NCBI GenBank assembly: GCA_032718475.1
Contig: JAUCBJ010002656.1
Location: forward strand, 8,365 to 72,364
Length of the DNA stretch: 64,000 nt
Reading direction: 5' to 3'
Origin: Nemertoderma westbladi
Taxonomy: Eukaryota > Animalia > Xenacoelomorpha
Positions 349 through 62,928 of this stretch are shown piece by piece; position 1 is the first letter of the stretch, and each line of letters opens with the position of its first letter. The notes below the pieces were generated by a model. It saw nothing but the letters and a program-made list of their open reading frames with translations, did no database searches and was not told where the DNA came from. The translations under genes were made by a program, and so were the position numbers.

Positions 349-1523
349 TGTTCGCGCTTTCAGACCTTTGGCAGTTCAACCCGCCAAATTAAGATGTCTT
401 CTAGATATTAAATCGCTTTTTAGCCTATGACAAGTATTTGATTCACTACACTAGTCGAAACCAATCTGTGCGCGACCATTCACCCGCTGGATATTCGCGG
501 GAGATTGGGTTCGACGGTTTAATTTTATTGCTATGTAAGCCTAATGTATTATTCGACTGACAGTATTATATAATCTCTGACAATATTATTCACCTTCGGG
601 AATATTAACAGTTCCTTTAGGACGTGGCGCTTTATCTATATAAACAGAGTTATGACTTAAACTACTCACAACGATATGGCTCAATTATAATTCACATATA
701 TGGCGCATTCTTTAGGAATTGCTTCTTTAACAGACTCACTCATACGCAATGCTGCACAATACTGCACACTAATCTGCCAATCTTCACTGATTTTAGTCAC
801 ATATAAAAGGAACACAGACTGACTCATGTAGGGTCTATCAAATAACATTAGATTCACTTCAAACCACTTTAACATAAGTCACAATCGTTATTGGTAACCT
901 TTCTCTCTTACCTTCGGTATATCAAGAATATTGGGTGTCGGGGTTATTTCTCGTTATTCCAATATAATAATTCATCAACAAATATAATGAATAACCGACA
1001 ACAAATAGCAGTATGCAGTATTCACAGATCAATCGTGCCAGTTTGTTTTGAGTTAAGACAATCAGTCAGTTAAAGGATATATGTCCTTATAATTAAACCT
1101 ACTAGTGTTGAGCTAAAAAGCAGAAAGCACAAAACACTAAAAAGCCGTTCTTTCGTGGCTTTGAAAAACTCGTGACTACTGCTCTATACGAGGATACCAA
1201 CTACCCTTATTCCACGAAACTCCCGTTCAACACAGAGAAAGAGCAGTGAGATAGGAAAATTTCAGTTCAGTAGCTCTGTGATAGGTCAAAATCAAGGCTA
1301 ACTCAAATTCTATTGGGAGATACAAAAACAAGGCTATGACGCAACCTCCCTAGGCTTGTTGGCCGATTAAACAGAGCCCAGATGCCTGCGTACAGCAAAT
1401 CAGCCAATAAGCTGGTAACTTGCACTATTTTTAGCTATAGATCACTTTGAGAGTATTCTTAGCGACTGGGGGGGAACTGGCCAACAAGGCAAACGAATCA
1501 GTTATCCCACAAAAGCTTTTACA
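349..1523 (-). mobile_element. Solo LTR of the BEL/Pao family seen at 32198-33353
   Basis: Starts TGTTCGCGCTTTCAGACCTTT exactly like 32198 and is colinear with it for at least 750 bp. Ends CAAAAGCTTTTACA, like CAAAAGCCTTTACA at 33340-33353. On the minus strand the termini are TGT...AACA. No matching TSD. Confidence 0.8.
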
Positions 1524-15420: not shown

Positions 15421-15473
15421 TGGTAAGTTTTTGAGTTCTGGAACATTACTGACTTATCAGTCCTAAGTCTCGT

Positions 15474-28309: not shown

Positions 28310-29889
28310 GATATAATGGTGATATTGAAAAATATCAAGATATGACAAATATCGAGTGTAAAAATAACGCGAGTAAAAATATCAAGTGTTGAAAAATGAC
28401 GATAATAATATCGAGAGTTCAAAAAATATCGAGAATAAAAATATCGAGAGTAAAAATATCGAGTGTTGAAAAATATCGAGAGTAAAAATATCAAGTGTTG
28501 AAAAATATCGAGTATTGAAAAATATCGAGAGTACAAATATCAAGTGTTGAAAAATATCGAGAGTAAAAATATCGAGTGTTGAAAAATATCGAGAGTAAAA
28601 ATATCGAGTGTTGAAAAATATCGAGTATTGAAAAATATCGAGAGTAAAAATATCGAGTGTTGAAAAATATCGAGAGTTGAAAAATATCGATAGTAAAAAT
28701 ATCGAGTGTTGAAAAATATCGAGAGTAAAAATATCGAGTGTTGAAAAATATCGAGTGTTGAAAAATATCGAGAGTAAAAATATCGAGTGTTGAAAAATAT
28801 CGAGTATTGAAAAATATCGAGAGTAAAAATATCGAGTGTTGAAAAATATCGAGAGTTGAAAAATATCGATAGTAAAAATATCGAGAGTAAAAATATCGAG
28901 TGTTGAAAAATATCGAGAGTTGAAAAATATCGATAGTAAAAATATCGAGTGTTGAAAAATATCGATAGTAAAAATATCGAGTGTTGAAAAATATCGATAG
29001 TAAAAATATCGAGTGTTGAAAAATATCGAGAGTAAAAATATCGAGTGTTGAAAAATATCGAGTATTGAAAAATATCGAGAGTAAAAATATCGAGTGTTGA
29101 AAAATATCGAGAGTTGAAAAATATCGATAGTAAAAATATCGGGTGTTGAAAAATATCGAGTGTTGAAAAATATCAAGTGTTGAAAAATATCGAGTGTTGA
29201 AAAATATCGATAGTAAAAATATCGAGTGTTGAAAAATATCGATAGTAAAAATATCGAGTGTTGAAAAATATCGATAGTAAAAATATCGAGTGTTGAAAAA
29301 TATCGAGTATTGAAAAATATCGAGAGTAAAAATATCGAGTGTTGAAAAATATCGAGAGTTGAAAAATATCGATAGTAAAAATATCGGGTGTTGAAAAATA
29401 TCGAGTGTTGAAAAATATCAAGTGTTGAAAAATATCGAGTGTTGAAAAATATCGATAGTAAAAATATCGAGTGTTGAAAAATATCGATAGTAAAAATATC
29501 GAGTGTTGAAAAATATCGAGTGTTGAAAAATATCGAGTGTTGAAAAATATCGAGAGTAAAAATATCGAGTGTTGAAAAATATCGAGAGTAAAAATATCGA
29601 ATGTTGAAAAATATCGAGTATTGAAAAATATTTAGAGTAAAATATCAAGTGTTGAAAAATATCAATAGTAAAAATATCGAGAGTAAAAATATCGAGTGTT
29701 GAAAAATATCGAGAGTAAAATATCGAGTGTTGAAAAATATCGAGAGTAAAAATATCGAGTGTTGAAAAATATCGAGAGTAAAAATATCGAGTGTTGAAAA
29801 ATATCGAGAGTAAAAATATCGAGTGTTGAAAAATATCGAAATTAAAAATATCGAGTGTTGAAAAATATCGAGAGTAAAAATATCGATAG
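28310..29889 (+). repeat. Satellite of mixed 15/17-bp units (ATCGAGAGTAAAAAT / ATCGAGTGTTGAAAAAT)
   Basis: Directly visible, roughly 95-100 units. Confidence 0.95.
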
Positions 29890-29919
29890 CAACAATTTTT
29901 TTAATAAGGGTTGTATGAT

Positions 29920-30175
29920 AATTTTTTTCCTAGAGATGTTCTAGTACAAAAAAATGTGTTCTAGAACAAAAATATTTATCAACATTGGTAGCTTACACGT
30001 GTTCTATAACATTTATAAAATGAAGTAGAAAATGCTAGCTGTTTTAAAAAATTAAAAATGTGATCTAGAACTAAAAAATGTGTTCTAGAACAAAAATATT
30101 TATCCAAATTGATAGCTAGCACTTCTTCTACAATATTTATTAAAAAATAGCAAAAACTAGCTAGTATAATAAATC
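29920..30175. repeat. AT-rich dispersed repeat with ~120-bp subunits, also at about 58215-58600
   Basis: TTCTAGAACAAAAATATTTATC...GATAGCTA and AAAACTAGCTAGTATAA shared between the two sites. Confidence 0.7.
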
Positions 30176-30288
30176 TGTAAATTGGGTACCCAAGGTGTAT
30201 TAATGCCATTTATTTGCGCGTGCACTGTTGTATCCCATGCACTGCAATATTGTCCCATAATTCTAAATAAAATGCACGCAAAATGCAA

Positions 30289-30475
30289 TATTTTTTGCTC
30301 TCGATATTTTTCAACACTCGATATTTTTCAACACTCGATATTTTTCAACACTCGATATTTTAACTCTCGATATTTTTCAACACTCGATATTTTTACTCTC
30401 GATATTTTTACTCTCGTTATTTTTACTCTAGATATTTTTCAACACTCGATATTTTTCAACACTCGATATTTTTAC
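30289..30475 (-). repeat. Inverted block of the same 15/17-bp satellite
   Basis: CTCGATATTTTTCAACA and CTCGATATTTTTACT units. Confidence 0.9.
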
Positions 30476-30489
30476 CAGGTGGCACGATA

Positions 30490-32197
30490 ATAGATTTACG
30501 TTCTTGTAATCAAAGCCATCTAATGTTCTGGCTAAAGTCTGAAACTTCTACAGAAGCACAGAAGAATTCTAAGCCGATGTTCTGCTGCTTAGAAAATAGT
30601 AAAACATAAACCGTAATGCATTGCGCGGTTTTACATAGGCCCTTGTCAGAAATAAAATGAAAATCGCTCTGATTGGCTGAGCTAGGCAGAACAAAGAAAG
30701 GTTCCATGTGTACAGAAAATCAGCTGACAGATGTCGTCATCTGAGCTCCAGTCTTTTAGAGTATTATGCGCATTGCGGCAAAAATGACTTGTTATGTCCG
30801 CCAAAGCACCTACACGGTACATTACAGGGAAAAATGACTTGTTATGTCCGCAAAAGCATTTACACCGCTCCCAGAAAATGGGATTTAAGTCTATAAAATA
30901 TATAAAATCACAGTTTCTAAAATATAAAAATACTCTAAACAGTTAGTCCTTCTTATGTGAACGGCATTTACGAAGTTTTTTGAGGCTAGCAAGAGTCCTT
31001 TTCTCTTTGGGGCGAGCCACATTACTAGGAGGGCTATAACTCCTGGGTGAAGGGTGCAATACAATTGCATTGGAAGGTTTAGGGTTACGGTCGGTGTATC
31101 CGCCGGTTGAGGTACCTGGTTTATCGATATCAACCTCAGTGGAGTGAGGTCGAACAACCTTCAGAGCGCGTTTCAAGACAGCAGCTCTTACTGGTCTCTG
31201 ACGAGTCGTCTGCACGAGAGCGGTAGGTGGACTGTGAGTAGTGAGAAATTTCCTCGGTTTGATGGTTCTTTCCAACTCGCGTTCTCGGGCTCTATCGGAA
31301 TCGATATGCTTCTCCTCGAGCTGATTTTCCACCGCTTGTCGTTGGAAGCATTTGTCCAAAACTCTTGCAGAGAGTAGGGTCGTCCGAGTTTGATATCTTC
31401 TTCGAGATTCCGGATTTCCCGATCGAACTGAGGTAAAGCTAATTATTTTACCGCTTGGACTTGCTGCTGCAATTTACGTTTCTCTAAACAATTGTAGGTT
31501 CCTTTTCCGATCTTTTGTCGAATAGTGTCTAACGCGTTTCGTTCAACTCTCTCCTCCACCTCGGTGACAGGTTGTATCGGGGTTAAACCGGGACGATTAT
31601 ACGGGTTGAACGGCGATATTAAATGTCCGCGTCCCAATCCGGCTAGGTAGGATGGGCGAATATCTAGAGAGCCCACTACTGGAGTGCCACGGACTAATTG
31701 TTCAGGTAACACTAGATCTTTGAACAGTGAGTACAGTTCAGGAGGATCCGTCATACTATTAGGATCAAGAGTCTGAGGTCTCACCAGGGAATGAGGAGGT
31801 CTGACCGAGTATTCCGGAACTCTGATCATAGGTTTATTTAAGGATCGTTTGAGCTGAGCGAGCATAGGTGATACGTCGAACAAGTTTCGCTCGAAACTCC
31901 CGTAAGTATAGCGAGTAAAACTGTGTTTAGCGCAACGTCTCCGCGGATGTTTATGTCTTTCCGTGTGTTGGTTGAGTCTAGGGCATTCATCGTAATAATA
32001 CCAAAGACGCACGTCTTGTAGGGGAAACGCGGGTGATCTTTCTCCAGTTTTACAATGCTTCTCTCAAGAATTCCAAATATACGTTGAAGTCACTGCGTTT
32101 ATCCGGTTCTTTAACGTCTTCTCTTTTGAGTCTATTTCGAATAGAATTTTTCGTGTTTGATTTCCGTTTTTGTTCCGACTCTGCTGGGTATGATATT
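30490..32197 (-). mobile_element. Older, internally deleted BEL/Pao relative: partial 3' LTR (to 30864), PPT and remnants of the extra ORF
   Basis: TTTACA|CCGCTCCCAGAAAATGGGATTTAAGTCTATAAAATA identical to 33348 onward. ORFs 31443-32012 and 30943-31359 match the N- and C-terminal parts of the large ORF with the middle missing. Confidence 0.85.
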
Positions 32198-33353
32198 TGT
32201 TCGCGCTTTCAGACCTTTAGCAGTTTAACCTGCCAAATTGGGATGTCTTCTAGATAATAGATCGTCTTTAGCCTATGACAAGTATTTGATACACTACATT
32301 AGCCGAAGCCAGTCTATGCGCGATCATTCACCCGCTGGATATACCCCGGGAGACTGGATTCGGAAGCTTAACCGTATTGCGGGGTAGGCCTACTGTATTA
32401 TTCGACTGATCGTAATATATATAATCTCTGACAAATATTATTCACTTTCGGGAAATATTAACAGTTCCTTTAGGACGTGGCGCTTTAAATATATAAACAG
32501 AGTTATGACTTAAACTAGACACAACGGGATGGCTATAGATTCACGTATATGGCGCATTCTTTAGGAGATGCTTTGTTATCAATCACAATCATACACAATA
32601 CTGCACAATGCTGCACACTAATCTGCCGACCTTCACTAATTTTAGTCACATATAAGGAGAACAACAGACAATACGTGTAGGGCCTATAAAATAGCATTAG
32701 ATTCACTTCAAACCACTTAATGTAAGTCGCAATCGTTATATGTATCCGATCTCTCTAACCTTTAGTATATCAAGAAGATTGGGGTGTCTGATTATTTATC
32801 AGTATTCCAAATATAATATTCCATCAACAAATATAATGAATAACCGACAGTAAAAGCAGTAAAATGTTAAGGTATAAATTGATATGATCGTTTTGGTTAG
32901 TATGAGTTATGATAACAGATATATGTTCTATAATTAAGCCTACTAATGTTGGGCTAAAGACTGAAACACGGAGGTTCCAAAGAGTTGTAGGCTGTGGACA
33001 AAATCACATACTGACTCAACTCCACGAGTTTCTATATACAATCTCTAACACAGAGGCAAAAAACGCTCTGATTGGTCGACCAAACAAAGAAGGAACAGAG
33101 AACAAAGAAAAGCTACACGTGTACAGCATCAGCTGTTAGCCGTCGTCATGGTAGCTACACTGTTTACAGAGGATTTGGCGCATTGCGTCATAAAATTGCG
33201 AATTATGTCCGCTAAAGTACACATACAGAAGAAATGGCTTTTATGTCCTCTAAAACACCAGTACAGTAAGGACACGGCCTTTTATGCCTGTTAAACCAAC
33301 TACAGAGTACTTCACGGGGAAAATAACCGGCTAATTCCGCAAAAGCCTTTACA
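32198..33353 (-). mobile_element. 3' LTR (~1156 bp) of a BEL/Pao retrotransposon
   Basis: Minus strand reads PPT-like GGGAGCGG, then TGTAAAGG ... GCGCGAACA; homologous to 349-1523 and 30490-30864. Confidence 0.85.
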
Positions 33354-33431
33354 CCGCTCCCAGAAAATGGGATTTAAGTCTATAAAATATAACAAATCAC
33401 AGTTTCTAAAATATAAAAATACTCTAAACAG

Positions 33432-36400
33432 TTAGTCTTTCTTACGCGGACGGCGTTTACGCAGTTTTTTGAGGCTAGCAAGAGTCCTTTTCTCTTTGGG
33501 GCGAGCCACTTTACTAGGAGGGCTGTAACTCCTGGGTGAAGGGTGCAATACAATTGCATCAGAAGGTTTAGGATTACGATCGGTGTATCCGCCGGTCGAG
33601 GTACCTGGTTGATCGATATCAACTTCAGTGGAGCGAGGTCTAACGGCCTTTAGGGCGCATCTTAGGACAGCAGCTCCTACGGGTCCTTGATGGGTCGTCT
33701 GGACAATGGCGGTAGGCGGACCGTGAGTGGTGAGAAACTTCCTTTGTTTAATGGTTCTTTCCAGCTCGCGTTCTCGGGCTCGATATTCGTAGGGCCGTCG
33801 AGATACTTCCTGTAACTCAGGGTGCGAGTTGATAAATAAATCGCCATACTCAGGGTCTTGACGGATGTAATTGATCAAATGGTATGAAGTAATATCGTTA
33901 GGATTGACGTTCCTAAGATATTTTCGAACAAATTTGGTGGAAATACACTCACCAACACGCTTCATTAGTTCGTAACTCGGTGTGCGTGTTTTTTGTTCCA
34001 CAGACGCGAATAAATAAGGATGGAACGCGTAAACTCCCTCGTAAGAGCGTCCAGGGTAGTAGCAATGGCGGGACTCATAATGTAAATCCGCGTTCGCTTC
34101 CCAAGCTCGGATGTAGCGCAGGGTAATCATCTCATCTACGCTTTCTAAATCGCGGTTAAAGGGGCAATTATAACTGGCATGTCCTTTAAGTTGACAGTGG
34201 TGGCATTGGGTCATAAATTGGGGGCAGACTGCAAAAATATGCGAGTTATTAAGTCTGCTATACGCACAATAGATCTCTATCATCGGTTGTTCGTGGAAAT
34301 AGGAGCAGGGTACGTCTGAGTCCATAGGGGTGAAATGGTCTCTCGATGCGCATAATCGACAACGTTTTCGAGAAACATAGTTGGCGTGTCGATAATCGTA
34401 TGCGGTGAGACATTGTGGACCTTGATACCACTCCAAGACGTAATCGTTATCGCTGCTCCGGGGCGCTGTAGGCTGGATCGCTTCAGACTCTAAGCATATT
34501 GGTTCGTCTTCCAATTGCATAGCTGAGGTAGGTGCGGCTGTCTCCGCAAGCGGACCCACTGTCTGAACTTCCACGACAGAATAACCCGTGGCTATTCGGG
34601 CTCTTTGTATAACAGATGAATGTAAGTTCTGTATACAAACGTCCTGAAAGAAGGCAAATCCCGCGCTGTTTAGCTTCTCCGCAGCTGAGTCTCTTAGGCT
34701 GAGTTTGGTCAGAGCGCGGTCCTTGAACTGACTATCAACGTTACGGAACGGAGTCAGAAAGCGCCTGAAACATTCGAAGCGGATGAATTTATTGTGTTCA
34801 TCTAACTTGGCGAGTTTGGTTCCAAGTATTAAGGGATGGGCGCGTATGGTACGACTGCACACATCGGCGAGCCAACCGGCAAGTGCTGCGTTTTCAAAGA
34901 TCGTGTATATAGCTAAGGAGGGACGAAGTGGAACACTCATAAAGCTATACACGGCGCCAGGTGCGGTCAATGGTCCATCAAAGTATAAACGAGAATAATG
35001 ATCTCCATATACTTGTTGGTAATTTATAGGATTTCCAACCTTGAAATTCCATCCGTATTCTTGAAAGGCAAGATGTCCGATGGAGGTTCGTTGTACTTTA
35101 GTAATGCCGATGGGTGTATTTGCATACATAGTGCGGAAGAAACCTCGGCCTTCTGCCCAGGGAGCAATCAGCTGAGTATCAACGAAGGGGTATGGAATGT
35201 TCTCCATATTCCGGAAGTCGTTTTGTAGGTCTCCATAAACAGCTGAGCCGATTTTAAGGATTCTTTCGTTAAACAACATCTCGAGCACGGGCTGGGGTAA
35301 CATTGATCCATCGATACCCATGGCCGGTTTGCGCTCGGTGTCGGCGACATAACGCTGCGCGAGTTCGAATTGTCCATGTCGGAGTTTCTTTTGTGTCTCA
35401 GTAAGAGTCTCAAAAGAATAATCAATCACATCGGAACACGCTCGAGTAAATACGTGGGTAGAACCAGCGAGTCCTCGTATGTGTATCATCCGCGTAGTTC
35501 CCAGTTCTCCAACTGGAACGCTACCTTCGTTGTCGTAAGTGACAACTCCATACATCTCGATAACGTTAAGAGTCTCGTTCCACTCTTTAGTGGCATTTTC
35601 GAGGGTCATTCCCACTGGATGCCACAAGGTAGCGCATTCGCTAGCATTAGGTAGGTCTCTATACTTTAAATATTGCGTAGTATATGTTTCCACATCTCCA
35701 TATCGTTGTATTCTTTCCTCCTCGAATAACACGTCAAGATTCCAGTGTACTAAACGAGTTTTGATGAATCCATCAAGATTATACGGAGGTATTGTTTCTT
35801 TCTCTATTCTGGAAACATTGTATGGTTTTCGAAATGAGTTTATTTTAACTAACTGATCCAGATGTTTATGCAGTTGTTCGAGTTCGACAAGATCGAGAGG
35901 ATTTATGAGTGGCAGAAACCTCAGACTATGTGTAGGATCTTCCGGTTTTACCATGTAATATTGTGTTAGGTTGACGTAATAAGGGTGATCTTTGATCCCA
36001 TAAAACGAGTCTGGTAAAGGTCTAGCGCGTATGTTAATATCGTGTACCATGCGACGGACAAGATCCGCTCTATTGTCCGGAGGTTCAACGAGTATACCAT
36101 CGACACGAGCGGCTTCGATGGGCGGATGTTGCAACATGGGAGCGTCAGCGATAAGATCTCGAGATCTTAGGTTGATATCAACCGGTTGGGGTTGTACCGT
36201 CGCGAAGAGTTTGTCTCCGAAATGGGGAACCATCGAGGGATGAAGGATGGTTTTAGAGTAGAGATCCGTCATAAGGATTTGAGCTTCGGGTTGAGCTAAA
36301 GCTGCTTCTTCTCTCTCATCCATTTCTATATGTCTCTCCTCGAGCTGATTTTCCTCCGCTTGTTGTTGTAGACGCTCATCTAGGAACTCTTGTAAAGAGT

Positions 36401-36866
36401 AGGTTCGTCCACGTTCGATGTCCTCCTCGAGATTTTGTATTTCTCTATCGAACTGGGGTAAAGCTAATTCCTTCACCGCTTGGACTTGTTGTTGCAATTT
36501 ACGTTTCTCCAAACAATCGTAAGTTCCCTTTCCGATTTTCTGCCGGATAGCGTCTAACGCATTTCGTACGACGCTCTCTTCGACTTCCGTAACGGGTTGT
36601 ATCGAGGTGAAGCCGGGACGGTTGTGCGGGTTAAACGGCGATATTAGATGACCGCGTCCCAATCCAGCTAGGTAAGGTTGGCGAATATCTAGCGAGCCTA
36701 CTACCGGAGTGCCACCGATCAACTGTTCGGGTAGCACTAGATCTTTGAACAGTGAGTACAGTTCGGGAGGATCCGTGATAATATTAGGATCAAGAGTCTG
36801 AGGTCTAACTGAGGAATGAGGAGGTCTGACCGAGTATTCCGGAACTCTGATCATTGGTTTGTTCAA
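33432..36866 (-). CDS. Retrotransposon accessory ORF, main part: DEDDy 3'-5' exonuclease-like domain, CCHC zinc knuckles and basic tail
   Basis: ExoI VVTYDNEG; ExoII LPQPVLEMLFNERILKIGSAVYGDL; FVDTQ; SIGHLAFQEYG; ExoIII-like PLRPSLAIYTIFEN; CHHCQLKGHASYNC (CX2CX4HX4C); C-terminal KKLRKRRPRKKD. Confidence 0.75.
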   Translation of the reverse strand: MNKPMIRVPEYSVRPPHSSVRPQTLDPNIITDPPELYSLFKDLVLPEQLIGGTPVVGSLDIRQPYLAGLGRGHLISPFNPHNRPGFTSIQPVTEVEESVVRNALDAIRQKIGKGTYDCLEKRKLQQQVQAVKELALPQFDREIQNLEEDIERGRTYSLQEFLDERLQQQAEENQLEERHIEMDEREEAALAQPEAQILMTDLYSKTILHPSMVPHFGDKLFATVQPQPVDINLRSRDLIADAPMLQHPPIEAARVDGILVEPPDNRADLVRRMVHDINIRARPLPDSFYGIKDHPYYVNLTQYYMVKPEDPTHSLRFLPLINPLDLVELEQLHKHLDQLVKINSFRKPYNVSRIEKETIPPYNLDGFIKTRLVHWNLDVLFEEERIQRYGDVETYTTQYLKYRDLPNASECATLWHPVGMTLENATKEWNETLNVIEMYGVVTYDNEGSVPVGELGTTRMIHIRGLAGSTHVFTRACSDVIDYSFETLTETQKKLRHGQFELAQRYVADTERKPAMGIDGSMLPQPVLEMLFNERILKIGSAVYGDLQNDFRNMENIPYPFVDTQLIAPWAEGRGFFRTMYANTPIGITKVQRTSIGHLAFQEYGWNFKVGNPINYQQVYGDHYSRLYFDGPLTAPGAVYSFMSVPLRPSLAIYTIFENAALAGWLADVCSRTIRAHPLILGTKLAKLDEHNKFIRFECFRRFLTPFRNVDSQFKDRALTKLSLRDSAAEKLNSAGFAFFQDVCIQNLHSSVIQRARIATGYSVVEVQTVGPLAETAAPTSAMQLEDEPICLESEAIQPTAPRSSDNDYVLEWYQGPQCLTAYDYRHANYVSRKRCRLCASRDHFTPMDSDVPCSYFHEQPMIEIYCAYSRLNNSHIFAVCPQFMTQCHHCQLKGHASYNCPFNRDLESVDEMITLRYIRAWEANADLHYESRHCYYPGRSYEGVYAFHPYLFASVEQKTRTPSYELMKRVGECISTKFVRKYLRNVNPNDITSYHLINYIRQDPEYGDLFINSHPELQEVSRRPYEYRARERELERTIKQRKFLTTHGPPTAIVQTTHQGPVGAAVLRCALKAVRPRSTEVDIDQPGTSTGGYTDRNPKPSDAIVLHPSPRSYSPPSKVARPKEKRTLASLKKLRKRRPRKKD

Positions 36867-36957
36867 GGATCATTTGAGTCGAGCGACCGTAGGGGATACG
36901 TCGAACAGGTTTCGCTCGAAACTCCCATAAGTATATCGTGTAAAACTGTGTTTATGT

Positions 36958-37680
36958 TTATGTCGGATGTTTATGTCTTTCCGTTTGCTGATTGGGTCTA
37001 GGGCATTCGTCGCAGTAATACCAAAGACGCATGTCCTGCAGGGGAAACGCGGGTGATCGTTCTCCAGTTTTACAATATTCCTCCATCTGTTCGAAGCTAT
37101 CTGGGACGACAGGTAGCGGTCGATCGGCGGTAAGATACATCATAGTGAAATAGAGTCGTTTGAGCTCTATCATAGGATCATGATGTATACCTTGAGGATA
37201 TCGAGTTTCGAGATTTTGTTGACTGGCAATATTGAGGTATGTCTCTCTCAGGAATTCCAGATAATCGTTGAAGTCGCTGCGTTTATCCGGCTCTTCAACG
37301 TCTTCCCTTTCGAGTCTGTTTCGAATAGAGTTCTCGTGTTCTATTCTCGGTTTATCGTTCCGACTCCGCTGGGTATGATATTTAAATAAAACCATTTCCC
37401 TTTCGGTGTCTACGTCGTCCGTATCGTGTAAATCGATAGGATGGCCAGTAGTTAAGAAGTCCATATACATACCATTACGATGCGTATAGCGAGCGGTGAA
37501 CTTTCTATAATCCAATTCACGCGTAAGTTGCTCCGGGGACATTGGCGGTTCGATATAACGACCATCATCCTCCGTAGTAGTTGGACCAGCGTCGCCGCGT
37601 ATCAAGCTATCGACAAACGCTTGTAAAGGTAGAGTATATCGCTCCCTGATACTAAGATCATCTTCTATCAACTCAGTCAT
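36958..37680 (-). CDS. N-terminal 240 aa of the same accessory ORF, separated by a net 5-bp frameshift
   Basis: The paralogous copy at 31443-32012 reads continuously RHKHPRRRCAKHSF...LNKPMIRVPEY across this junction. Confidence 0.75.
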   Translation of the reverse strand: MTELIEDDLSIRERYTLPLQAFVDSLIRGDAGPTTTEDDGRYIEPPMSPEQLTRELDYRKFTARYTHRNGMYMDFLTTGHPIDLHDTDDVDTEREMVLFKYHTQRSRNDKPRIEHENSIRNRLEREDVEEPDKRSDFNDYLEFLRETYLNIASQQNLETRYPQGIHHDPMIELKRLYFTMMYLTADRPLPVVPDSFEQMEEYCKTGERSPAFPLQDMRLWYYCDECPRPNQQTERHKHPT

Positions 37681-39312
37681 ATCTGCTATGAGTTTATCAA
37701 TATTATAATGAGTTTATATATTAGGCTAGCGGGCGTCGCTGCCTACCCCTCTTTTGCCCCCGGACAGTGCAAGATCCTCAGCGCCGATGTACCGTCGTCG
37801 CTGTTCTTTCGCCAATGATGTAGCTACACAACGACAACGATAACCGGCACAAGTCACTCCACTGTCCGTCCCAAAGGCTTAGATGTACTTCAGGTTCTTT
37901 CTCAAGAGTTAGGGCTACTTTCACAATTGCGACTAGCTACTGTAAACACACTTTAGCAGTAACATTCACCTATGAACGCACAAATTCAACACAACTGCCA
38001 CAAACTGTACACATTCGGGCCATTTGTCCGTTAGTCAGTACCTTCCAGAATGTCACTTTATTTATTATGTATCCTTGGATACTAGCAGTGCGCTATTTAT
38101 TCCCTATGCTATTCAATGGGGCAAGCTTTCTATTGTTCTTTTAACTCACTTCTAATTCTAGCGTGGTTGTTGCTATGGTGACATTATGGAAAGCTAGCGG
38201 TAGAATTAGGGTAATTCTCATGCATACAGATCTGGGATGCTATTTAATAGTAATTCTTTAATTGTCAATATCCTCTCTATACATGATTTTATGAATTTTA
38301 TCGGCTATTGACTATATATTGGAGATTCTCGCACACTAATACACTTAATAGAGTGAATCTCCGCTCCCATGATCTATTAATTAATGGAATTTTGGGAATG
38401 TTATAAATTGTATAAAAATGACAATTTATTAAATTCATTAAAATATATGAATTTAAATTTATTCCCGTAAATTTTATTATTTAATGTTAAATAGACACAA
38501 TTTTATTCCAGAACATGTCTGGGGACTGGGATCCTTGATTCTAGGAATTTTGACCTTTTAAGAGTATCGGTAAGTGCTACGATATCTTAATCGACTAGAA
38601 TTTTAAAGGATCTAAAATTTGACAGATTTTGTAAATATTAATAATTAATATTTAGGATGGGCACCAGTTTATTCCAGAACTTGTCTGGGGACGTTAACCA
38701 CTGATTCTAGAATTTGTCTTTCAAGTATATCGGTGGGTGCTGCGATATCTTAATCGACTAGAATTGCAGATGGTCAAAGGGTTTAACAGATTTATTTGCG
38801 TTGTACGCTACTGTTAAAAGGACATCACGCTACTATATGTATTATTCAATATACGGTATGAGAGCAATATCGCACGAAGCAATGTCAGTGAGAAGAGGCA
38901 AGTCGATTCCAAGGTCTACCCAGAGCTTGGTTTAGCCGAGACACGAGGATCTGAATTTTGCATTCCTAATACTCTGCTTACCAATAATACTTAAATATAG
39001 TAGGAGCTTTATTGTACTTTAATAAGTACGGACATTTCATCTTACTGTAATTACGTATTTGTAATGTAATACGTACAGTAAGGAAAGGGAAAAAGAATTA
39101 TTTCTCGCCGTCGCACTAAATATATAATATATAAGTAATTAAGTAATAAACGCGAATATATATTGCACTAATCTACTAAATAATCGCTAAAATAACATTC
39201 TACTAAATAAAATTAAAGAAAACGATTATAATAAAATTACATAATAATATATACATAAATATAAAAGAATAAAACAAATACAAATATAGTCATACACCTA
39301 CTCCAGCCGTTG

Positions 39313-39887
39313 TTAAGTTGGGGAGTCCCTAGATGTTTGTTGGATTAGGGAGGTGGTCGTGGGAAGAGTATCTTGCCTCCCATAGTTTCCGGAGAGTTCT
39401 CTGTCTCTTTCCAGTAAACATAAGCGACCAACTGGGCGATTGAGCTGCTGTGTCTCGAAGACAATTCCCGGTTTCTTGAAGTTACGTCGCATGACGACGA
39501 GTTCTACCGATCGCACCAAACCGTCATCCGAGATGTGAGTCTCGATGATACGACCTGTCTGCCACCGCTTACGTGGAAGATCTACATCCACAATAAGAAC
39601 CATGTCTCCAGCGCTGACGTTTTCTTGCTGCGCAAACCACTTAGTTCGAAGTTGTAGCGTGGGCAGATAATGTTTTTCGAAATGGTCAGCGAAACGACCG
39701 GATAACAACTGCATGAGTTGCCAAGTTTGCCGGCAGTATTCGTCTCCGTCTGTGATTTCCGATTGTGGGAGCATGGCTACAGGTTTCTTCAGTAGGAAAT
39801 GCGCGGGTGTTAGCGCTTCCAGGGAATCGGGACTCGATGAGACTGGCATAAGCGGTCTCTCGTTGAGATAGGCGGCGATTTCCTCCA
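39313..39887 (-). pseudogene. BEL/Pao Pol C-terminus (integrase end plus DUF5641-like region), 5'-truncated by a TTAA insertion
   Basis: EIAAYLNERPL, EALTPAHFL, YLPTLQLRTKW, GDMVLI, WQTGRIIETHISDDGLVRSV, RPVGRLCLL. Confidence 0.9.
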
Positions 39888-39891
39888 TTAA

Positions 39892-41387
39892 CCCTATTAA
39901 ACCCGGGGGGGGTCAATATGACCCCCCCCCCCCCGTGGTTTTTTTATTATAGTTCTGAAACCAACGCAGTTGGGAATCTGAAATTTTATGACTTTTCCTA
40001 AAAATCTATTGTCTTCCTAGTAGTGAAAACCGTTTTCAAAAATATTGGGTACTTTTCGAGTTATAGCACCATTTTTTAACCCTACTTTTGGCACTTTTTT
40101 TGAGACGTTTTTTGAAAATTACATTTCATTAAATATGAATTGTAACATCGCTATTTTTGATTTACACCGGTTTTTTGGTGTTAGAAATTTGATGGAATTC
40201 ATATAAATTGACTTAGAAATTTCAAACTTGTTTTTTTCGGTGGGTGCCAAATTTTGGTGCCAGCACCAAATTTTGAAATAAGTCAATTTTGTAAATTGAT
40301 CGTTTGAAACTTGTTTTTTACGCAATTGGGGTTTTTTGGGTTTCTGGATTCGATGAAATATATACGAGTTGCACCAAGCGTATCAAACTTGTATTTTTCG
40401 GTGCTGTGTGCAAATTTTGGTGCTAGCACGAAATTTTGAAAATCCATTCAATAGATAAAATTGCTTGTGACAATTTATTTCTTGCGTTTTAGAGGTTTAT
40501 GGCTGTTCTGAATTCAATGGAAAATATAATTATCGAACTAGACATCTCAAACTTGTATTTTTCGGATGTGGGTGCAAAATGTGGTGCTAGCACCAAATTT
40601 TGAAAACCATCAAATATATCAATTGATTGTGTCGCCTTGTTTCTTGCGTTATACGGGTTTGTGATGGTTCTGAATTCAATGGAATCAGTAAAAATTTCAT
40701 AAGAGTTCTCAAACTTGTATTTTTCGCCGGTCGGTGAAAATTGTTGTGCCAGCACCAAATTTTGGAAAATATGCAAATTGATAAGTAGATAGTATCACCT
40801 TGTTTCTTGCGTTATACGGGTTTATGAGGGTCCTGAATCCAATGGAATCAATAAAAACAGCACTGGACATCGCAAACTTGTACTTTTTGGTGATGGGTAC
40901 GAAATTTGGTGCTAGCACCAAAATTTGCCAAATTACGCCTAAAAATACAAGTAGCAATGATCTGGCATATTAGAAATGTATTCCATTAGAATCAGCGCCC
41001 TCGAAAACCTGAAAATGTGAATTTATAGCATCGTATAAGTGAATTAAAAATTTTGTGTTCAAACTGAAAAGTGCTGGTTACTTGTTTTTTTCATTTTTTT
41101 CCTACGCAGAGAGGACTAAACAGCCATTTATAGTAATCATATCATTTTTTAATATTTTTCAATGTATTTTGCACCCCAGAAAACCAGTATTAAAAAATAA
41201 TTAGCCTAAAATGTAACTTTCAAATTTGGTGAAAATTGTGCACTACTTATAATTTTGGTGCTGCAATATAACCACCCCAGTACATTTTTTCGAAAAATTT
41301 TTTTTTCGGTCGGATCCAGACAAGTGATACCTACGTACAAACAAAAAATCAGACGTTTTCGTAAATATTTGTAGATTTTAGAGGGGG
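39892..41387 (+). mobile_element. piggyBac-like non-autonomous DNA transposon end with internal ~162-bp repeats
   Basis: TTAA at 39888-39891 followed by CCCTATTAAACCCGGGGGGGGTCAATATGACCCCCC; five CAAACTTGT...GGTGCYAGCACC-type units at about 40220-40925; partner terminus not found. Confidence 0.55.
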
Positions 41388-44300
41388 TACCGCCGTTCCA
41401 TTAACCATAAGGTAACATTCTAACTACCGCCGTTCCATTAACCATAAGGTAACATTCTAACTACCGCCGTTCCATTAACCATAAGGTAACATTCTAACTA
41501 CCGCCGTTCCATTAACCATAAGGTAACATTCAAACTACCGCCGTTCCATTAACCATAAGGTAACATTCTAACTACCGCCGTTCCATTAACCATAAGGTAA
41601 CATTCAAACTACCGCCGTTCCATTAACCATAAGGTAACATTCAAACTACCGCCGTTCCATTAACCATAAGGTAACATTCAAACTACCGCCGTTCCATTAA
41701 CCATAAGGTAACATTCTAACTACCGCCGTTCCATTAACCATAAGGTAACATTCAAACTACCGCCGTTCCATTAACCATAAGGTAACATTCAAACTACCGC
41801 CGTTCCATTAACCATAAGGTAACATTCAAACTACCGCCGTTCCATTAACCATAAGGTAACATTCAAACTACCGCCGTTCCATTAACCATAAGGTAACATT
41901 CAAACTACCGCCGTTCCATTAACCATAAGGTAACATTCAAACTACCGCCGTTCCATTAACCATAAGGTAACATTCAAACTACCGCCGTTCCATTAACCAT
42001 AAGGTAACATTCAAACTACCGCCGTTCCATTAACCATAAGGTAACATTCAAACTACCGCCGTTCCATATTAATCATAAGGTAACATTCAAACTACCGCCG
42101 TTCCATTAACCATAAGGTAACATTCAAACTACCGCCGTTCCATTAACCATAAGGTAACATTCAAACTACCGCCGTTCCATTAACCATAAGGTAACATTCA
42201 AACTACCGCCGTTCCATTAACCATAAGGTAACATTCAAACTACCGCCGTTCCATTAACCATAAGGTAACATTCAAACTACCGCCGTTCCATATTAATCAT
42301 AAGGTAACATTCTAACTACCGCCGTTCCATTAACCATAAGGTAACATTCTAACTACCGCCGTTCCATTAACCATAAGGTAACATTCTAACTACCGCCGTT
42401 CCATTAACCATAAGGTAACATTCAAACTACCGCCGTTCCATTAACCATAAGGTAACATTCAAACTACCGCCGTTCCATTAACCATAAGGTAACATTCAAA
42501 CTACCGCCGTTCCATTAACCATAAGGTAACATTCAAACTACCGCCGTTCCATTAACCATAAGGTAACATTCTAACTACCGCCGTTCCATTAACCATAAGG
42601 TAACATTCAAACTACCGCCGTTCCATTAACCATAAGGTAACATTCTAACTACCGCCGTTCCATTAACCATAAGGTAACATTCTAACTACCGCCGTTCCAT
42701 TAACCATAAGGTAACATTCTAACTACCGCCGTTCCATTAACCATAAGGTAACATTCAAACTACCGCCGTTCCATTAACCATAAGGTAACATTCAAACTAC
42801 CGCCGTTCCATTAACCATAAGGTAACATTCAAACTACCGCCGTTCCATTAACCATAAGGTAACATTCAAACTACCGCCGTTCCATTAACCATAAGGTAAC
42901 ATTCAAACTACCGCCGTTCCATTAACCATAAGGTAACATTCAAACTACCGCCGTTCCATTAACCATAAGGTAACATTCAAACTACCGCCGTTCCATTAAC
43001 CATAAGGTAACATTCAAACTACCGCCGTTCCATTAACCATAAGGTAACATTCAAACTACCGCCGTTCCATTAACCATAAGGTAACATTCTAACTACCGCC
43101 GTTCCATTAACCATAAGGTAACATTCAAACTACCGCCGTTCCATTAACCATAAGGTAACATTCAAACTACCGCCGTTCCATTAACCATAAGGTAACATTC
43201 AAACTACCGCCGTTCCATTAACCATAAGGTAACATTCAAACTACCGCCGTTCCATTAACCATAAGGTAACATTCAAACTACCGCCGTTCCATTAACCATA
43301 AGGTAACATTCAAACTACCGCCGTTCCATTAACCATAAGGTAACATTCAAACTACCGCCGTTCCATTAATCATAAGGTAACATTCAAACTACCGCCGTTC
43401 CATTAATCATAAGGTAACATTCTAACTACCGCCGTTCCATTAACCATAAGGTAACATTCAAACTACCGCCGTTCCATTAACCATAAGGTAACATTCAAAC
43501 TACCACCGTTCCATTAACCATAAGGTAACATTCAAACTACCGCCGTTCCATTAACCATAAGGTAACATTCAAACTACCGCCGTTCCATTAACCATAAGGT
43601 AACATTCAAACTACCGCCGTTCCATTAACCATAAGGTAACATTCAAACTACCGCCGTTCCATTAACCATAAGGTAACATTCAAACTACCGCCGTTCCATT
43701 AACCATAAGGTAACATTCAAACTACCGCCGTTCCATTAACCATAAGGTAACATTCAAACTACCGCCGTTCCATTAACCATAAGGTAACATTCAAACTACC
43801 GCCGTTCCATTAACCATAAGGTAACATTCAAACTACCGCCGTTCCATTAACCATAAGGTAACATTCAAACTACCGCCGTTCCATTAACCATAAGGTAACA
43901 TTCTAACTACCGCCGTTCCATTAATCATAAGGTAACATTCTAACTACCGCCGTTCCATTAACCATAAGGTAACATTCAAACTACCGCCGTTCCATTAACC
44001 ATAAGGTAACATTCAAACTACCGCCGTTCCATTAACCATAAGGTAACATTCAAACTACCGCCGTTCCATTAACCATAAGGTAACATTCAAACTACCGCCG
44101 TTCCATATTAACCATAAGGTAACATTCTAACTACCGCCGTTCCATTAACCATAAGGTAACATTCTAACTACCGCCGTTCCATTAACCATAAGGTAACATT
44201 CTAACTACCGCCGTTCCATTAACCATAAGGTAACATTCAAACTACCGCCGTTCCATTAACCATAAGGTAACATTCAAACTACCGCCGTTCCATTAACCAT

Positions 44301-47300
44301 AAGGTAACATTCAAACTACCGCCGTTCCATTAACCATAAGGTAACATTCAAACTACCGCCGTTCCATATTAACCATAAGGTAACATTCTAACTACCGCCG
44401 TTCCATTAACCATAAGGTAACATTCTAACTACCGCCGTTCCATTAACCATAAGGTAACATTCTAACTACCGCCGTTCCATTAACCATAAGGTAACATTCA
44501 AACTACCGCCGTTCCATTAACCATAAGGTAACATTCTAACTACCGCCGTTCCATTAACCATAAGGTAACATTCAAACTACCGCCGTTCCATTAACCATAA
44601 GGTAACATTCTAACTACCGCCGTTCCATTAACCATAAGGTAACATTCAAACTACCGCCGTTCCATATTAACCATAAGGTAACATTCAAACTACCGCCGTT
44701 CCATTAACCATAAGGTAACATTCAAACTACCGCCGTTCCATTAACCATAAGGTAACATTCAAACTACCGCCGTTCCATTAATCATAAGGTAACATTCAAA
44801 CTACCGCCGTTCCATATTAATCATAAGGTAACATTCAAACTACCGCCGTTCCATTAACCATAAGGTAACATTCAAACTACCGCCGTTCCATATTAACCAT
44901 AAGGTAACATTCAAACTACCGCCGTTCCATTAACCATAAGGTAACATTCAAACTACCGCCGTTCCATTAACCATAAGGTAACATTCAAACTACCGCCGTT
45001 CCATTAACCATAAGGTAACATTCAAACTACCGCCGTTCCATTAACCATAAGGTAACATTCAAACTACCGCCGTTCCATTAACCATAAGGTAACATTCTAA
45101 CTACCGCCGTTCCATTAACCATAAGGTAACATTCTAACTACCGCCGTTCCATTAACCATAAGGTAACATTCAAACTACCGCCGTTCCATATTAACCATAA
45201 GGTAACATTCAAACTACCGCCGTTCCATTAACCATAAGGTAACATTCAAACTACCGCCGTTCCATTAACCATAAGGTAACATTCAAACTACCGCCGTTCC
45301 ATTAACCATAAGGTAACATTCAAACTACCGCCGTTCCATTTAACCATAAGGTAACATTCAAACTACCGCCGTTCCATTAACCATAAGGTAACATTCAAAC
45401 TACCGCCGTTCCATATTAACCATAAGGTAACATTCAAACTACCACCGTTCCATTAACCATAAGGTAACATTCAAACTACCGCCGTTCCATTAACCATAAG
45501 GTAACATTCAAACTACCGCCGTTCCATTAACCATAAGGTAACATTCAAACTACCGCCGTTCCATTAACCATAAGGTAACATTCAAACTACCGCCGTTCCA
45601 TTAACCATAAGGTAACATTCAAACTACCGCCGTTCCATTAACCATAAGGTAACATTCTAACTACCGCCGTTCCATTAACCATAAGGTAACATTCTAACTA
45701 CCGCCGTTCCATTAACCATAAGGTAACATTCAAACTACCGCCGTTCCATTAACCATAAGGTAACATTCAAACTACCGCCGTTCCATTAACCATAAGGTAA
45801 CATTCAAACTACCGCCGTTCCATTAACCATAAGGTAACATTCAAACTACCGCCGTTCCATATTAATCATAAGGTAACATTCTAACTACCGCCGTTCCATT
45901 AACCATAAGGTAACATTCTAACTACCGCCGTTCCATTAACCATAAGGTAACATTCTAACTACCGCCGTTCCATTAACCATAAGGTAACATTCAAACTACC
46001 GCCGTTCCATTAACCATAAGGTAACATTCAAACTACCGCCGTTCCATTAACCATAAGGTAACATTCAAACTACCGCCGTTCCATTAACCATAAGGTAACA
46101 TTCAAACTACCGCCGTTCCTATTAACCATAAGGTAACATTCTAACTACCGCCGTTCCATTAACCATAAGGTAACATTCTAACTACCGCCGTTCCATTAAC
46201 CATAAGGTAACATTCTAACTACCGCCGTTCCATTAACCATAAGGTAACATTCAAACTACCGCCGTTCCATTAACCATAAGGTAACATTCAAACTACCGCC
46301 GTTCCATTAACCATAAGGTAACATTCAAACTACCGCCGTTCCATTAACCATAAGGTAACATTCTAACTACCGCCGTTCCATTAACCATAAGGTAACATTC
46401 AAACTACCGCCGTTCCATATTAACCATAAGGTAACATTCAAACTACCGCCGTTCCATTAACCATAAGGTAACATTCAAACTACCGCCGTTCCATTAACCA
46501 TAAGGTAACATTCAAACTACCGCCGTTCCATTAACCATAAGGTAACATTCAAACTACCGCCGTTCCATATTAATCATAAGGTAACATTCAAACTACCGCC
46601 GTTCCATTAACCATAAGGTAACATTCAAACTACCGCCGTTCCATTAACCATAAGGTAACATTCAAACTACCGCCGTTCCATATTAACCATAAGGTAACAT
46701 TCAAACTACCGCCGTTCCATTAACCATAAGGTAACATTCTAACTACCGCCGTTCCATTAACCATAAGGTAACATTCAAACTACCGCCGTTCCATTAACCA
46801 TAAGGTAACATTCTAACTACCGCCGTTCCATTAACCATAAGGTAACATTCAAACTACCGCCGTTCCATTAAGCATAAGGTAACATTCTAATTACCGCCGT
46901 TCCATTAACCATAAGGTAACATTCAAACTACCGCCGTTCCATTAACCATAAGGTAACATTCAAACTACCGCCGTTCCATTAACCATAAGGTAACATTCAA
47001 ACTACCGCCGTTCCATATTAACCATAAGGTAACATTCTAACTACCACCGTTCCATTAACCATAAGGTAACATTCAAACTACCGCCGTTCCATTAACCATA
47101 AGGTAACATTCAAACTACCGCCGTTCCATTAACCATAAGGTTCCATATTAACATAAGGTAACATTCTACTACCGCCGTTCCATTAACCATAAGGTAACAT
47201 TCAAACTACCGCCGTTCCATTAACCATAAGGTAACATTCAAACCACCGCCGTTCCATATTAACCATAAGGTAACATTCTAACTACCGCCGTTCCATTAAC

Positions 47301-49622
47301 CATAAGGTAACATTCAAACTACCGCCGTTCCATTAACCATAAGGTAACATTCTAACTACCGCCGTTCCATATTAACCATAAGGTAACATTCTAACTACCG
47401 CCGTTCCATTAACCATAAGGTAACATTCAAACTACCGCCGTTCCATATTAACCATAAGGTAACATTCAAACTACCGCCGTTCCATTAACCATAAGGTAAC
47501 ATTCTAACTACCGCCGTTCCATTAACCATAAGGTAACATTCTAACTACCGCCGTTCCATATTAATCATAAGGCAACATTCAAACTACCGCCGTTCCATTA
47601 ACCATAAGGTAACGTTCTTACTACCGCCGTTCCATTAACCATAAGGTAACATTCTAACTACCGCCGTTCCATATTAATCATAAGGTAACATTCTAACTAC
47701 CGCCGTTCCATTAACCATAAGGTAACGTTCTTACTACCGCCGTTCCATTAACCATAAGGTAACATTCTAACTACCGCCGTTCCATATTAATCATAAGGTA
47801 ACATTCTAACTACCGCCGTTCCATTAACCATAAGGTAACATTCTAACTACCGCCGTTCCATTAACCATAAGGTAACATTCTAACTACCGCCGTTCCATTA
47901 ACCATAAGGTAACATTCAAACTACCACCGTTCCATTAACCATAAGGTAACATTCAAACTACCGCCGTTCCATTAACAAGGTAACATTCAAACTACCACCG
48001 TTCCATATTAATCATAAGGTAACATTCTAACTACCGCCGTTCCATTAACCATAAGGTAACATTCAAACTACCACCGTTCCATTAACCATAAGGTAACATT
48101 CAAACTACCGCCGTTCCATATTAATCATAAGGTAACATTCTAACTACCGCCGTTCCATTAACCACAAGGTAACATTCAAACTACCGCCGTTCCATTAACC
48201 ATAAGGTAACATTCAAACTACCGCCGTTCCATATTAACCATAAGGTAACATTCTAACTACCGCCGTTCCATTAACCATAAGGTAACATTCTAACTACCGC
48301 CGTTCCATTAACCATAAGGTAACATTCAAACTACCGCCGTTCCATTAACCATAAGGTAACATTCAAACTACCGCCGTTCCATTAACCATAAGGTAACATT
48401 CAAACTACCGCCGTTCCATTAACCATAAGGTAACATTCAAACTACCGCCGTTCCATTAACCATAAGGTAACATTCAAACTACCGCCGTTCCATTAACCAT
48501 AAGGTAACATTCAAACTACCGCCGTTCCATTAACCATAAGGTAACATTCAAACTACCGCCGTTCCATTAATCATAAGGTAACATTCAAACTACCACCGTT
48601 CCATTAACCATAAGGTAACATTCAAACTACCGCCGTTCCATTAACCATAAGGTAACATTCAAACTACCGCCGTTCCATTAACCATAAGGTAACATTCAAA
48701 CTACCGCCGTTCCATTAACCATAAGGTAACATTCAAACTACCGCCGTTCCATTAACCATAAGGTAACATTCAAACTACCGCCGTTCCATTAATCATAAGG
48801 TAACATTCAAACTACCACCGTTCCATTAACCATAAGGTAACATTCAAACTACCGCCGTTCCATATTAACCATAAGGTAACATTCTAACTACCGCCGTTCC
48901 ATTAACCATAAGGTAACATTCAAACTACCACCGTTCCATTAACCATAAGGTAACATTCAAACTACCGCCGTTCCATATTAATCATAAGGTAACATTCTAA
49001 CTACCGCCGTTCCATTAACCATAAGGTAACATTCAAACTACCACCGTTCCATTAACCATAAGGTAACATTCAAACTACCGCCGTTCCATATTAACCATAA
49101 GGTAACATTCAAACTACCGCCGTTCCATTAACCATAAGGTAACATTCAAACTACCGCCGTTCCATATTAACCATAAGGTAACATTCTAACTACCACCGTT
49201 CTATTAACCATAAGGCAACATTCAAATTACCGCCGTTCCATATTAACCATAAGGTAACATTCAAACTACCGCCGTTCCATTAACCATAAGGTAACATTCA
49301 AACTACCGCCGTTCCATATTAACCATAAGGTAACATTCAAACTACCGCCGTTCCATTAACCATAAGGTAACATTCAAACTACCGCCGTTCCATATTAACC
49401 ATAAGGTAACATTCAAACTACCGCCGTTCCATTAACCATAAGGTAACATTCAAACTACCGCCGTTCCATATTAACCATAAGGTAACATTCTAACTACCGC
49501 CGTTCCATTAACCATAAGGTAACATTCAAACTACCGCCGTTCCATATTAACCATAAGTTAACATTCAAACTACCGCCGTTCCATATTAACCATAAGGTAA
49601 CATTCAAACTACCGCCGTTCCA
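41388..49622. repeat. 37-bp satellite, about 220 copies (TACCGCCGTTCCATTAACCATAAGGTAACATTC[A/T]AAC)
   Basis: Directly visible, highly homogeneous; 39-bp variants with an AT insertion. Confidence 0.98.
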
Positions 49623-62895: not shown

Positions 62896-62928
62896 ATAAT
62901 TGGTATGGTTTTTTCTAGTCTTTGGAAA

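Follow-up and report, generated by a model that had tools for sequence, protein, structure and literature searches.

A 64,000-nucleotide (nt) stretch of Nemertoderma westbladi DNA (contig JAUCBJ010002656.1, positions 8,365 to 72,364; hereafter the window) carries, on its minus strand between positions 32198 and 39887, part of a retrotransposon with a large accessory gene. On balance, and judging from sequence, we lean towards assigning this segment to the 3' part of a long terminal repeat (LTR) retrotransposon that occurs in many copies, of which this one is dead, and that is likely a single BEL/Pao element. Its third gene would encode a large non-membrane protein that joins an RNase D-like domain to CCHC zinc knuckles and is predicted to act as an RNA-binding 3'-5' exoribonuclease. 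The analysis drew on the window itself, public data from four runs, a single distantly related protein (P0002) and a set of bacterial reference domains.

The window is animal-type DNA rich in repeats, including long interspersed nuclear element (LINE) fragments and satellites, and the region around the element is a nest of insertions. Reading along the minus strand, a DUF5641 integrase tail is followed by a non-coding stretch (37681-39312), two frames (36958-37713 and 33432-36869, which are 251 and 1145 amino acids (aa) long from stop to stop), a purine tract and an LTR (33353-32198). The accessory open reading frame (ORF) measures 1415.3 codons when counted from its ATG (37680) through its final sense codon (33435), and the size of about 1417 codons given in a first-pass annotation of the sequence was therefore about right. 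The order proposed there, integrase/DUF5641, 1.6-kb spacer, ORF, polypurine tract (PPT) and 3' LTR, is borne out by the frames, the Pfam match of the integrase and the TG...CA ends of the LTR. The element and its relatives are made up as follows.

39313..39886, minus strand: C-terminal part of a BEL/Pao-type (DUF5641) integrase, Pfam PF18701, E 8.8e-21; open frame 39313-39912, cut by an unrelated repeat at about 39887
37681..39312, minus strand: non-coding stretch of 1,632 nt, 35% GC, without a notable minus-strand frame; a spacer or possibly a second LTR-like unit
37681..37820, minus strand: candidate internal promoter or leader of putative function; GC fraction 0.60 and 10 CpG in 37820-37721, TATA match at 37720, ATG at 37680
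36958..37680, minus strand: opening 240 codons of the accessory ORF, without a recognised domain; a frameshift with a stop ends the frame in this copy
36870..36960, minus strand: damaged junction, with a frameshift near 36950-36960 and an in-frame stop at 36870-36872 (three-frame reading)
33432..36869, minus strand: main open frame, 1145 aa, with a helical N-terminal part, exonuclease-like domain, knuckles and basic tail
34836..35612, minus strand: 3'-5' exonuclease domain resembling RNase D/DEDDy, at aa ~420-678 in the 1145-aa frame; D446/E448 (ExoI), D547 (ExoII), candidate Y655/E659 (ExoIII)
34164..34361, minus strand: zinc-knuckle region, a canonical CX2CX4HX4C at 34164-34205 and two degenerate motifs
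33435..33470, minus strand: basic C-terminal tail, a possible nuclear localisation signal, largely kept in the sibling copy
33354..33362, minus strand: short PPT-like purine tract, with identical letters ahead of the sibling's LTR
32198..33353, minus strand: 3' LTR, 1156 nt, TG...CA, CCAAT at 33075 and TATA-like box at 33038; its 3' 760 nt match 349-1117 at 82%
30476..32197, minus strand: older sibling copy in which the central nuclease and knuckle part of the ORF is missing; a satellite interrupts its LTR, which begins at 30853
349..1523, minus strand: related LTR, solo or orphaned, 82% over 349-1117; alignment of the 5' part is limited to the first 20 nt, and no target-site duplication was seen by eye

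The marks of BEL/Pao in this copy are the DUF5641 integrase C-terminus and the TG...CA 3' LTR behind its purine tract; DUF5641 serves as a marker of the group. It is reported together with Peptidase A17 in a roo insertion (10.1101/2022.09.05.505575). The copy is 5'-truncated at about 39887. Beyond 39892, three contigs of run X5 differ from the window and, by eye, their letters continue integrase-like. Searches for tRNA genes and Rfam families found none.

The RNase D-like domain and zinc knuckles of the accessory protein

The assignment of the middle of the accessory ORF to a putative RNase D/DEDDy-like 3'-5' exonuclease domain is supported by several independent profile comparisons, at an identity of ~15-20%. 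The first-pass annotation had expected hits to DNA_pol_A_exo1/WRN_exo, and the profile searches favoured a DEDDy domain. Among 18,950 NCBIfam models only two hit the window domain, both of them RNase D (E 0.0036 and 0.023). A search of 1.84 billion representatives returned P0002 as the sole relative (E 4.6e-7), a 648-aa protein with 30% identity over the domain, in which the exonuclease is followed by CCHC knuckles as in the window protein and the equivalent block has a weak PF01612 hit (E 0.2). A profile of two rows, the window protein and P0002 (A2), was searched blind over 201 bacterial genomes and matched in 71 of them. In the 61 genomes scanned with both A2 and PF01612, 20 of 25 A2 matches lie inside PF01612 domains, which cover ~0.04% of that DNA, and DEDDy domains make up 29 of the 30 best A2 loci. 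HHalign against 70 bacterial domains gave a probability of 92.9 and a score of 49.4, compared with a probability of at most 4.1% and a score of at most 22.6 over 100 column shuffles. The ExoII block had been described as WRN/Mut-7-like; its DEDDy nature stands, but it lies nearer to RNase D (90% by HHalign group) than to WRN/EXD2-like domains (26%; Pol I 3%, short RNase D-like 1%) in a reference set made up of bacterial domains.

The motifs cited in the first-pass annotation were all located where it had placed them: TYDNEG at 35523-35540, FVDTQ at 35172-35186, the ExoIII-like motif at 34893-34931, the CCHC knuckle and the basic tail. Two alignments (A3 and A4), 46 rows in all, show D446, E448, K539 and D547 in every row. 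Extended alignments place TYDNE on ALDTE; HHalign aligns D446/E448 to DTE, and a DxE stands in register upstream of ExoII in both the window protein and P0002. The candidate ExoIII, PL-x6-Y-x3-E, is spaced like its bacterial counterpart PL-x6-Y-x3-D; the window protein and P0002 agree at its P, L, Y and E. Of the claimed set of three exonuclease motifs, the D547 block of ExoII and the register of the DxE held; taken singly, neither ExoI nor ExoIII reaches significance, and ExoIII was placed by inspection. With P0002 as the query, the top cluster in the ESM Atlas combines PF01612 (100%) with zf-CCHC (61%) at a score of 0.86 and is mostly from Euglenozoa, a lead only; the second match is an EXD1-like cluster (0.77).

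A single-sequence AlphaFold model of the domain reached a predicted local distance difference test (pLDDT) score of 30 and was not used. A model templated with bacterial DEDDy N-halves only had a mean pLDDT of 58, with 78-91 in the core blocks and 45-56 in an untemplated helix. All 16 rows with Z >= 5 in its structural comparison were DnaQ-like chains, the best being EXD2 (Z 7.8, root-mean-square deviation 3.6, 110 aligned), and the best Foldseek match was RNase D (E 0.011). The start of the model is in register with TbRND, an RNase D-type protein of Trypanosoma brucei (7 to 60, D27 to D80).

Several results weigh against the exonuclease assignment. Significant similarity spans only ~47 residues around ExoII. 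When the motifs were shuffled alone, 99 and 158 of 300 shuffles scored as high as ExoI and ExoIII, respectively, and both MAFFT and HHalign place ExoIII earlier, across an insertion, and not at Y655/E659. Because the fold model was built on bacterial DEDDy N-halves, its DnaQ-like matches are circular for the core, and the range aligned to TbRND ends with 250 at 292, where an ExoIII in register would give ~240 (D230 in TbRND; PMC7797062).

Searches for relatives by other routes returned little. Pfam gave no hit at cut-off for the exonuclease domain in either the window protein or P0002, and a PDB sequence search with the domain found no match. No homologous proteins were found in the length ranges 629-2004, 356-1290 and 140-501 aa, and exact look-up retrieved none of the three window proteins from the protein collection. 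Viral and metagenome contigs held no related loci and plasmids no match; a degenerate ExoII pattern had 12 metagenome matches, none of them related by tblastn.

The zinc-knuckle claim held for one canonical CCHC motif (34164-34205), but the other two of the three knuckle-like motifs in the window protein are degenerate, and the Pfam zf-CCHC_3 match is weak (E 0.03-0.11). Inspection of P0002 shows three knuckle motifs, and two of them resemble those of retroviral nucleocapsids with an E of 1e-4. P0002, encoded on a 9,449-nt contig, also has aromatic residues downstream of the knuckles in common with the window protein.

The ORF had been held not to be an env gene, and this was confirmed: its N-terminus is acidic and not signal-like, and neither of the two frames has a transmembrane stretch (best 19-residue hydropathy 1.19 and 0.44). 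An env identity is thus ruled out, in that both signal and transmembrane anchor are missing. A gag identity is unlikely, with no capsid hit in Pfam and no N-terminal part in P0002.

Coding constraint, the sibling copy and family abundance

Judged from codon comparisons, the accessory ORF is a real conserved gene under purifying selection in a many-copy family. Between the main copy and its sibling, the ratio of non-synonymous to synonymous substitution rates (dN/dS) is 0.083 over 133 codons (p 5e-17) and 0.154 over 116 codons (p 6e-9) in the main frame, and 0.116 over 37 codons (p 0.001) in the first part of the ORF (36958..37680). The sibling matches the main copy at 84-88% over 36325-37076, 37244-37383 and 33293-33781. 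The main copy is broken twice, by the frameshift with a stop near 36950-36960 and by the separate in-frame stop at 36870-36872; the first-pass annotation had rightly seen a frameshift to repair, but missed the second lesion. Since the sibling frame at 31443-32063 is open across both break sites, the family gene is one long ORF and the main copy is dead, with its nuclease domain intact.

The four runs comprise X1, X3 and X4, from three studies of one organism (A), and X5, from a second (B); one of these runs may be the window's own source. All 30 bins over the element are covered in all four runs, and the depths of the integrase and the ORF agree within ~2-4 fold. Pieces of the ORF of 399-802 nt in runs X3-X5 differ from the window in 12-19% of letters with 0-2 gaps, and of the 40 differences listed, out of 2,361, 22 lie in the main frame, 10 of them synonymous, against 23% of sites. 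A joint skipping 34512-37313 occurs in three of the four runs.

Two points limit this evidence as support for an active nuclease gene. The dN/dS blocks flank the nuclease domain and exclude it, and within the domain dN/dS is not measurable because the sibling is without it. In addition, no run is on record as RNA, X5 being RNA by guess only, and run coverage is not taken as a measure of expression.

At 32197/32198 the LTR of the main copy abuts the inside of the older copy of the same family, which has apparently inserted into itself; the abruptness of this join points to nesting of the main copy in the sibling. Three minus-strand LTRs (349-1523, 30476-30853 and 32198-33353) share their first ~20 nt, and two of them their last ~770 nt. 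Their 5' (U3-like) parts are far more diverged or cannot be aligned, which suggests fast turnover of the promoter part.

Weighing of the alternative readings

It appears probable to us that the accessory ORF lies within the BEL/Pao element that holds the integrase. Integrase, spacer and ORF form a contiguous unit on the same strand, other elements offer precedents for a third ORF in this position, and the 15 best of 331 joints include none that links the LTR end to 37815. The integrase and the ORF occurred together in all four runs at similar abundance, no contig being shown to bridge them. Four observations speak against a single element. No 5' LTR, gag or reverse transcriptase (RT) was found within the 64-kb window. 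A purine tract followed by TG lies at 39296, only 17 nt past the integrase stop, and is one of three such places in 9.4 kb; the filter also misses the real PPT, making this a crude test. Depth in run X5, contig depth being a poor measure, is 53-94 in five bins over 37620-39424 against 16-31 beside them (a 2-5 fold excess over the spacer). Finally, 135 nt before the accessory ATG, 37817-37797 on the minus strand reads CA, T and a TGG-led stretch, which together with the TG at 39296 could mark a fossil internal LTR.

The purine tract with its TG and the depth in run X5 would fit the presence of two elements, the 1.6-kb stretch being mostly the 3' LTR of a BEL/Pao element that landed upstream of the exonuclease gene of another LTR element, for example a gypsy-like one. 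A purine tract and TG just past the integrase is the usual place of a BEL 3' LTR. The stretch also holds an internal duplication of ~165 nt (38467-38602 against 38631-38765), within a region that is itself a nest of insertions. We nevertheless regard two elements as rather unlikely: the integrase, spacer and ORF are all present in the four runs and in both organisms, no target-site duplication was seen, the depth in run X4 is not raised across the spacer, and in X1 and X3 it does not change stepwise towards the ORF. The event would, moreover, have required an insertion on the same strand within ~150 nt of the start codon. The spacer had no similarity to the terminal LTR in any of six comparisons.

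A different doubt concerns catalysis. The domain could have the RNase D fold and yet retain little or no catalytic activity, binding RNA in the manner of EXD1, Maelstrom and Exuperantia and serving with the knuckles as a ribonucleoprotein scaffold or transport adaptor. The fourth acid departs from the aspartate typical of ExoIII, and its placement lacks significance; the domain is interrupted by large insertions, inactive DEDD derivatives are described in the PIWI-interacting RNA (piRNA) pathway (PMC5408684), and the second Atlas match of P0002 is EXD1-like. Against this stand the three metal-binding acids and the candidate ExoIII Y and E, which are identical in two proteins only 30% alike. 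Loss of the catalytic acids, the hallmark of EXD1 and Maelstrom, is not what was found: three of the four are kept in the window protein and P0002, the fourth being uncertain. We consider a dead module improbable.

It is also very doubtful that the ORF is the sole gene of a non-autonomous unit, arranged as LTR, primer site at 37814, ORF, PPT and LTR, with the knuckle protein in the position of gag. Such a unit would account for the CA, T and TGG at 37817-37812 and for the three knuckle-like motifs. The sequence at 37814 resembles a primer site for lysine transfer RNA (tRNA-Lys) in 14 of 18 letters by eye, with a rough chance of ~0.03-0.14 over all tRNA types. No self-priming complement to this motif was found above shuffles. 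If stand-alone copies existed, a joint linking 37815 with the LTR end at 32198 should be very deep, and the absence of this joint from the 15 best of 331 joints therefore counts against such a unit; a weaker go-back joint is listed, and joints of run X1 were incompletely counted. P0002, furthermore, begins at the nuclease and leaves no room for a capsid domain. Equally doubtful is that a conserved accessory protein with some different fold resembles RNase D through a short motif by chance, for, although there was no Pfam hit at cut-off and no PDB sequence hit and the unaided fold had a pLDDT of 30, the blind genome search, HHalign with its shuffles, NCBIfam and the Atlas agree on the family, and the DxE is in register upstream in both proteins.

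Elsewhere in the window, an uninterrupted 582-aa frame at 3800-5548 (minus strand), between mobile-element fragments, matches AMP-binding and AMP-binding_C (E 1e-58 and 2e-9); this intron-free, acyl-CoA ligase-like gene may be a retrocopy or have arrived by horizontal transfer. Another BEL/Pao family is represented by a DUF5641 fragment at 7037-7477 (plus strand, E 8.8e-9) that is unrelated to the first. A LINE at 12346-20688 (minus strand) has an endonuclease-RT frame that is open over 1035 aa, and its ORF1-like region is present as a tandem duplicate (15543-16520 and 18646-19650). Three satellite arrays lie at 41252-49600, 28325-30475 and 61400-62918: a very homogeneous 37-nt unit over ~8 kb, a 15-17-nt unit found in either orientation, and a 42-nt-like unit with two open frames. 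In the bacterial reference set, one Pol I exonuclease match is in two pieces with stops (L083/L084, G001:C1:4034683-4035194), probably an assembly error.

Known systems and the proposed function

DEDDy third ORFs are known from the bdelloid LTR retrotransposons Juno and Vesta and from Athena/Terminon elements (PMC5408684; also PMC6431247, PMC5718144, PMC6338049), and the statement in the first-pass annotation that bdelloid gypsy-type and Athena elements carry such ORFs agrees with the literature (PMC5408684). Like the window gene, ORF3 of Juno, Vesta and Athena is a non-env third ORF downstream of pol, RNase D-like of the DEDDy type and without a transmembrane part, and its activity and role are likewise only predicted (PMC5408684). 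The elements themselves differ: Juno, Vesta and Athena belong to rotifer clades with the order protease, dUTPase, RT, RNase H and integrase and with GPY/F integrase ends (PMC5408684; gypsy-type by our reading), whereas the integrase here ends in a DUF5641 tail. The rotifer motif is stated as DEED (PMC5408684) and that of the window protein is D-E-D-(E), a comparison made by description only. In contrast to rotifer ORF3, the window ORF has ~1,415 codons, with ~690 residues of no assigned function in front of the domain and knuckles behind it, and belongs to a high-copy family with dN/dS of 0.08-0.15. The rotifer study found no clear purifying selection within genomes for its ORF3s (PMC5408684), and a high-copy family with clear purifying selection is therefore a better test case.

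The domain order of the window protein is that of TbRND (PDB 7c42), in which an RNase D-type 3'-5' domain precedes several CCHC fingers that bind RNA (PMC7797062). The combination in TbRND has been called very unusual, and its two-metal site trims RNA held by the fingers (PMC7797062). TbRND differs in being a cellular mitochondrial guide-RNA trimmer with four fingers after a short linker and the canonical D230 (PMC7797062). As TbRND and the window protein show no sequence hit to each other, it serves as a functional model and not as shown kin.

Third genes of BEL/Pao elements lie, as here, between the integrase and the 3' LTR, and include the F-type env of roo and a gB/Chuvirus-like glycoprotein in mosquito BEL elements (PMC13524379, PMC3118150). 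Those are membrane fusion proteins, whereas the window ORF has neither a signal nor a transmembrane stretch. Mobile elements with a DnaQ-like 3'-5' exonuclease also include Dada (DEDDy, PMC3706591) and KolobokD (DEDDh, PMC9587614), but these are DNA transposons, in which the exonuclease either forms part of the transposase (Dada) or belongs to the DEDDh type (KolobokD), with DNA ends as its proposed substrate. Already in print are thus DEDDy third ORFs (PMC5408684), DEDD domains in DNA transposons (PMC3706591, PMC9587614) and the layout of exonuclease plus CCHC (TbRND, PMC7797062). Among retrotransposons, such an exonuclease gene turned up in the literature for rotifers alone; no report of a BEL/Pao element with a DEDDy third gene was found, with Repbase, subscription journals, the Terminon paper and the sequence supplements of PMC3118150 outside the coverage.

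We propose that the gene may be read from its own subgenomic transcript, as the GC-rich island and TATA-like box ahead of the ATG suggest. E659 would be the fourth metal ligand, giving D-E-D-E in place of D-E-D-D. The knuckles could hold single-stranded RNA and feed its 3' end into the active site, as in the trypanosome TbRND, and the basic tail could direct the protein to the nucleus. The enzyme might act in trans, because copies without the nuclease exist, namely the sibling and those behind the joint skipping 34512-37313. Its likeliest target may be host small RNA aimed at the element, that is, piRNA, small interfering RNA (siRNA) or their precursors, and we put forward a counter-defence role tentatively. 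The next guess would be that it trims the 3' ends of RNA made by the element itself, or else reverse-transcription intermediates or cDNA ends. The fullest version, which we think unlikely, is a high-copy BEL/Pao family with an active D-E-D-E exoribonuclease of 1,400 residues with CCHC knuckles, expressed from a fossil internal LTR and degrading piRNA/siRNA guides, the module having passed among BEL/Pao, gypsy-type and Penelope-like elements.

If the single-element reading is true, nuclease-bearing third genes would extend from rotifer gypsy-type and Athena elements to BEL/Pao. The family may thereby bear on the benefit that encoding a 3'-5' exonuclease brings to a retrotransposon, and on whether animal retrotransposons have enzymes directed against small-RNA silencing.

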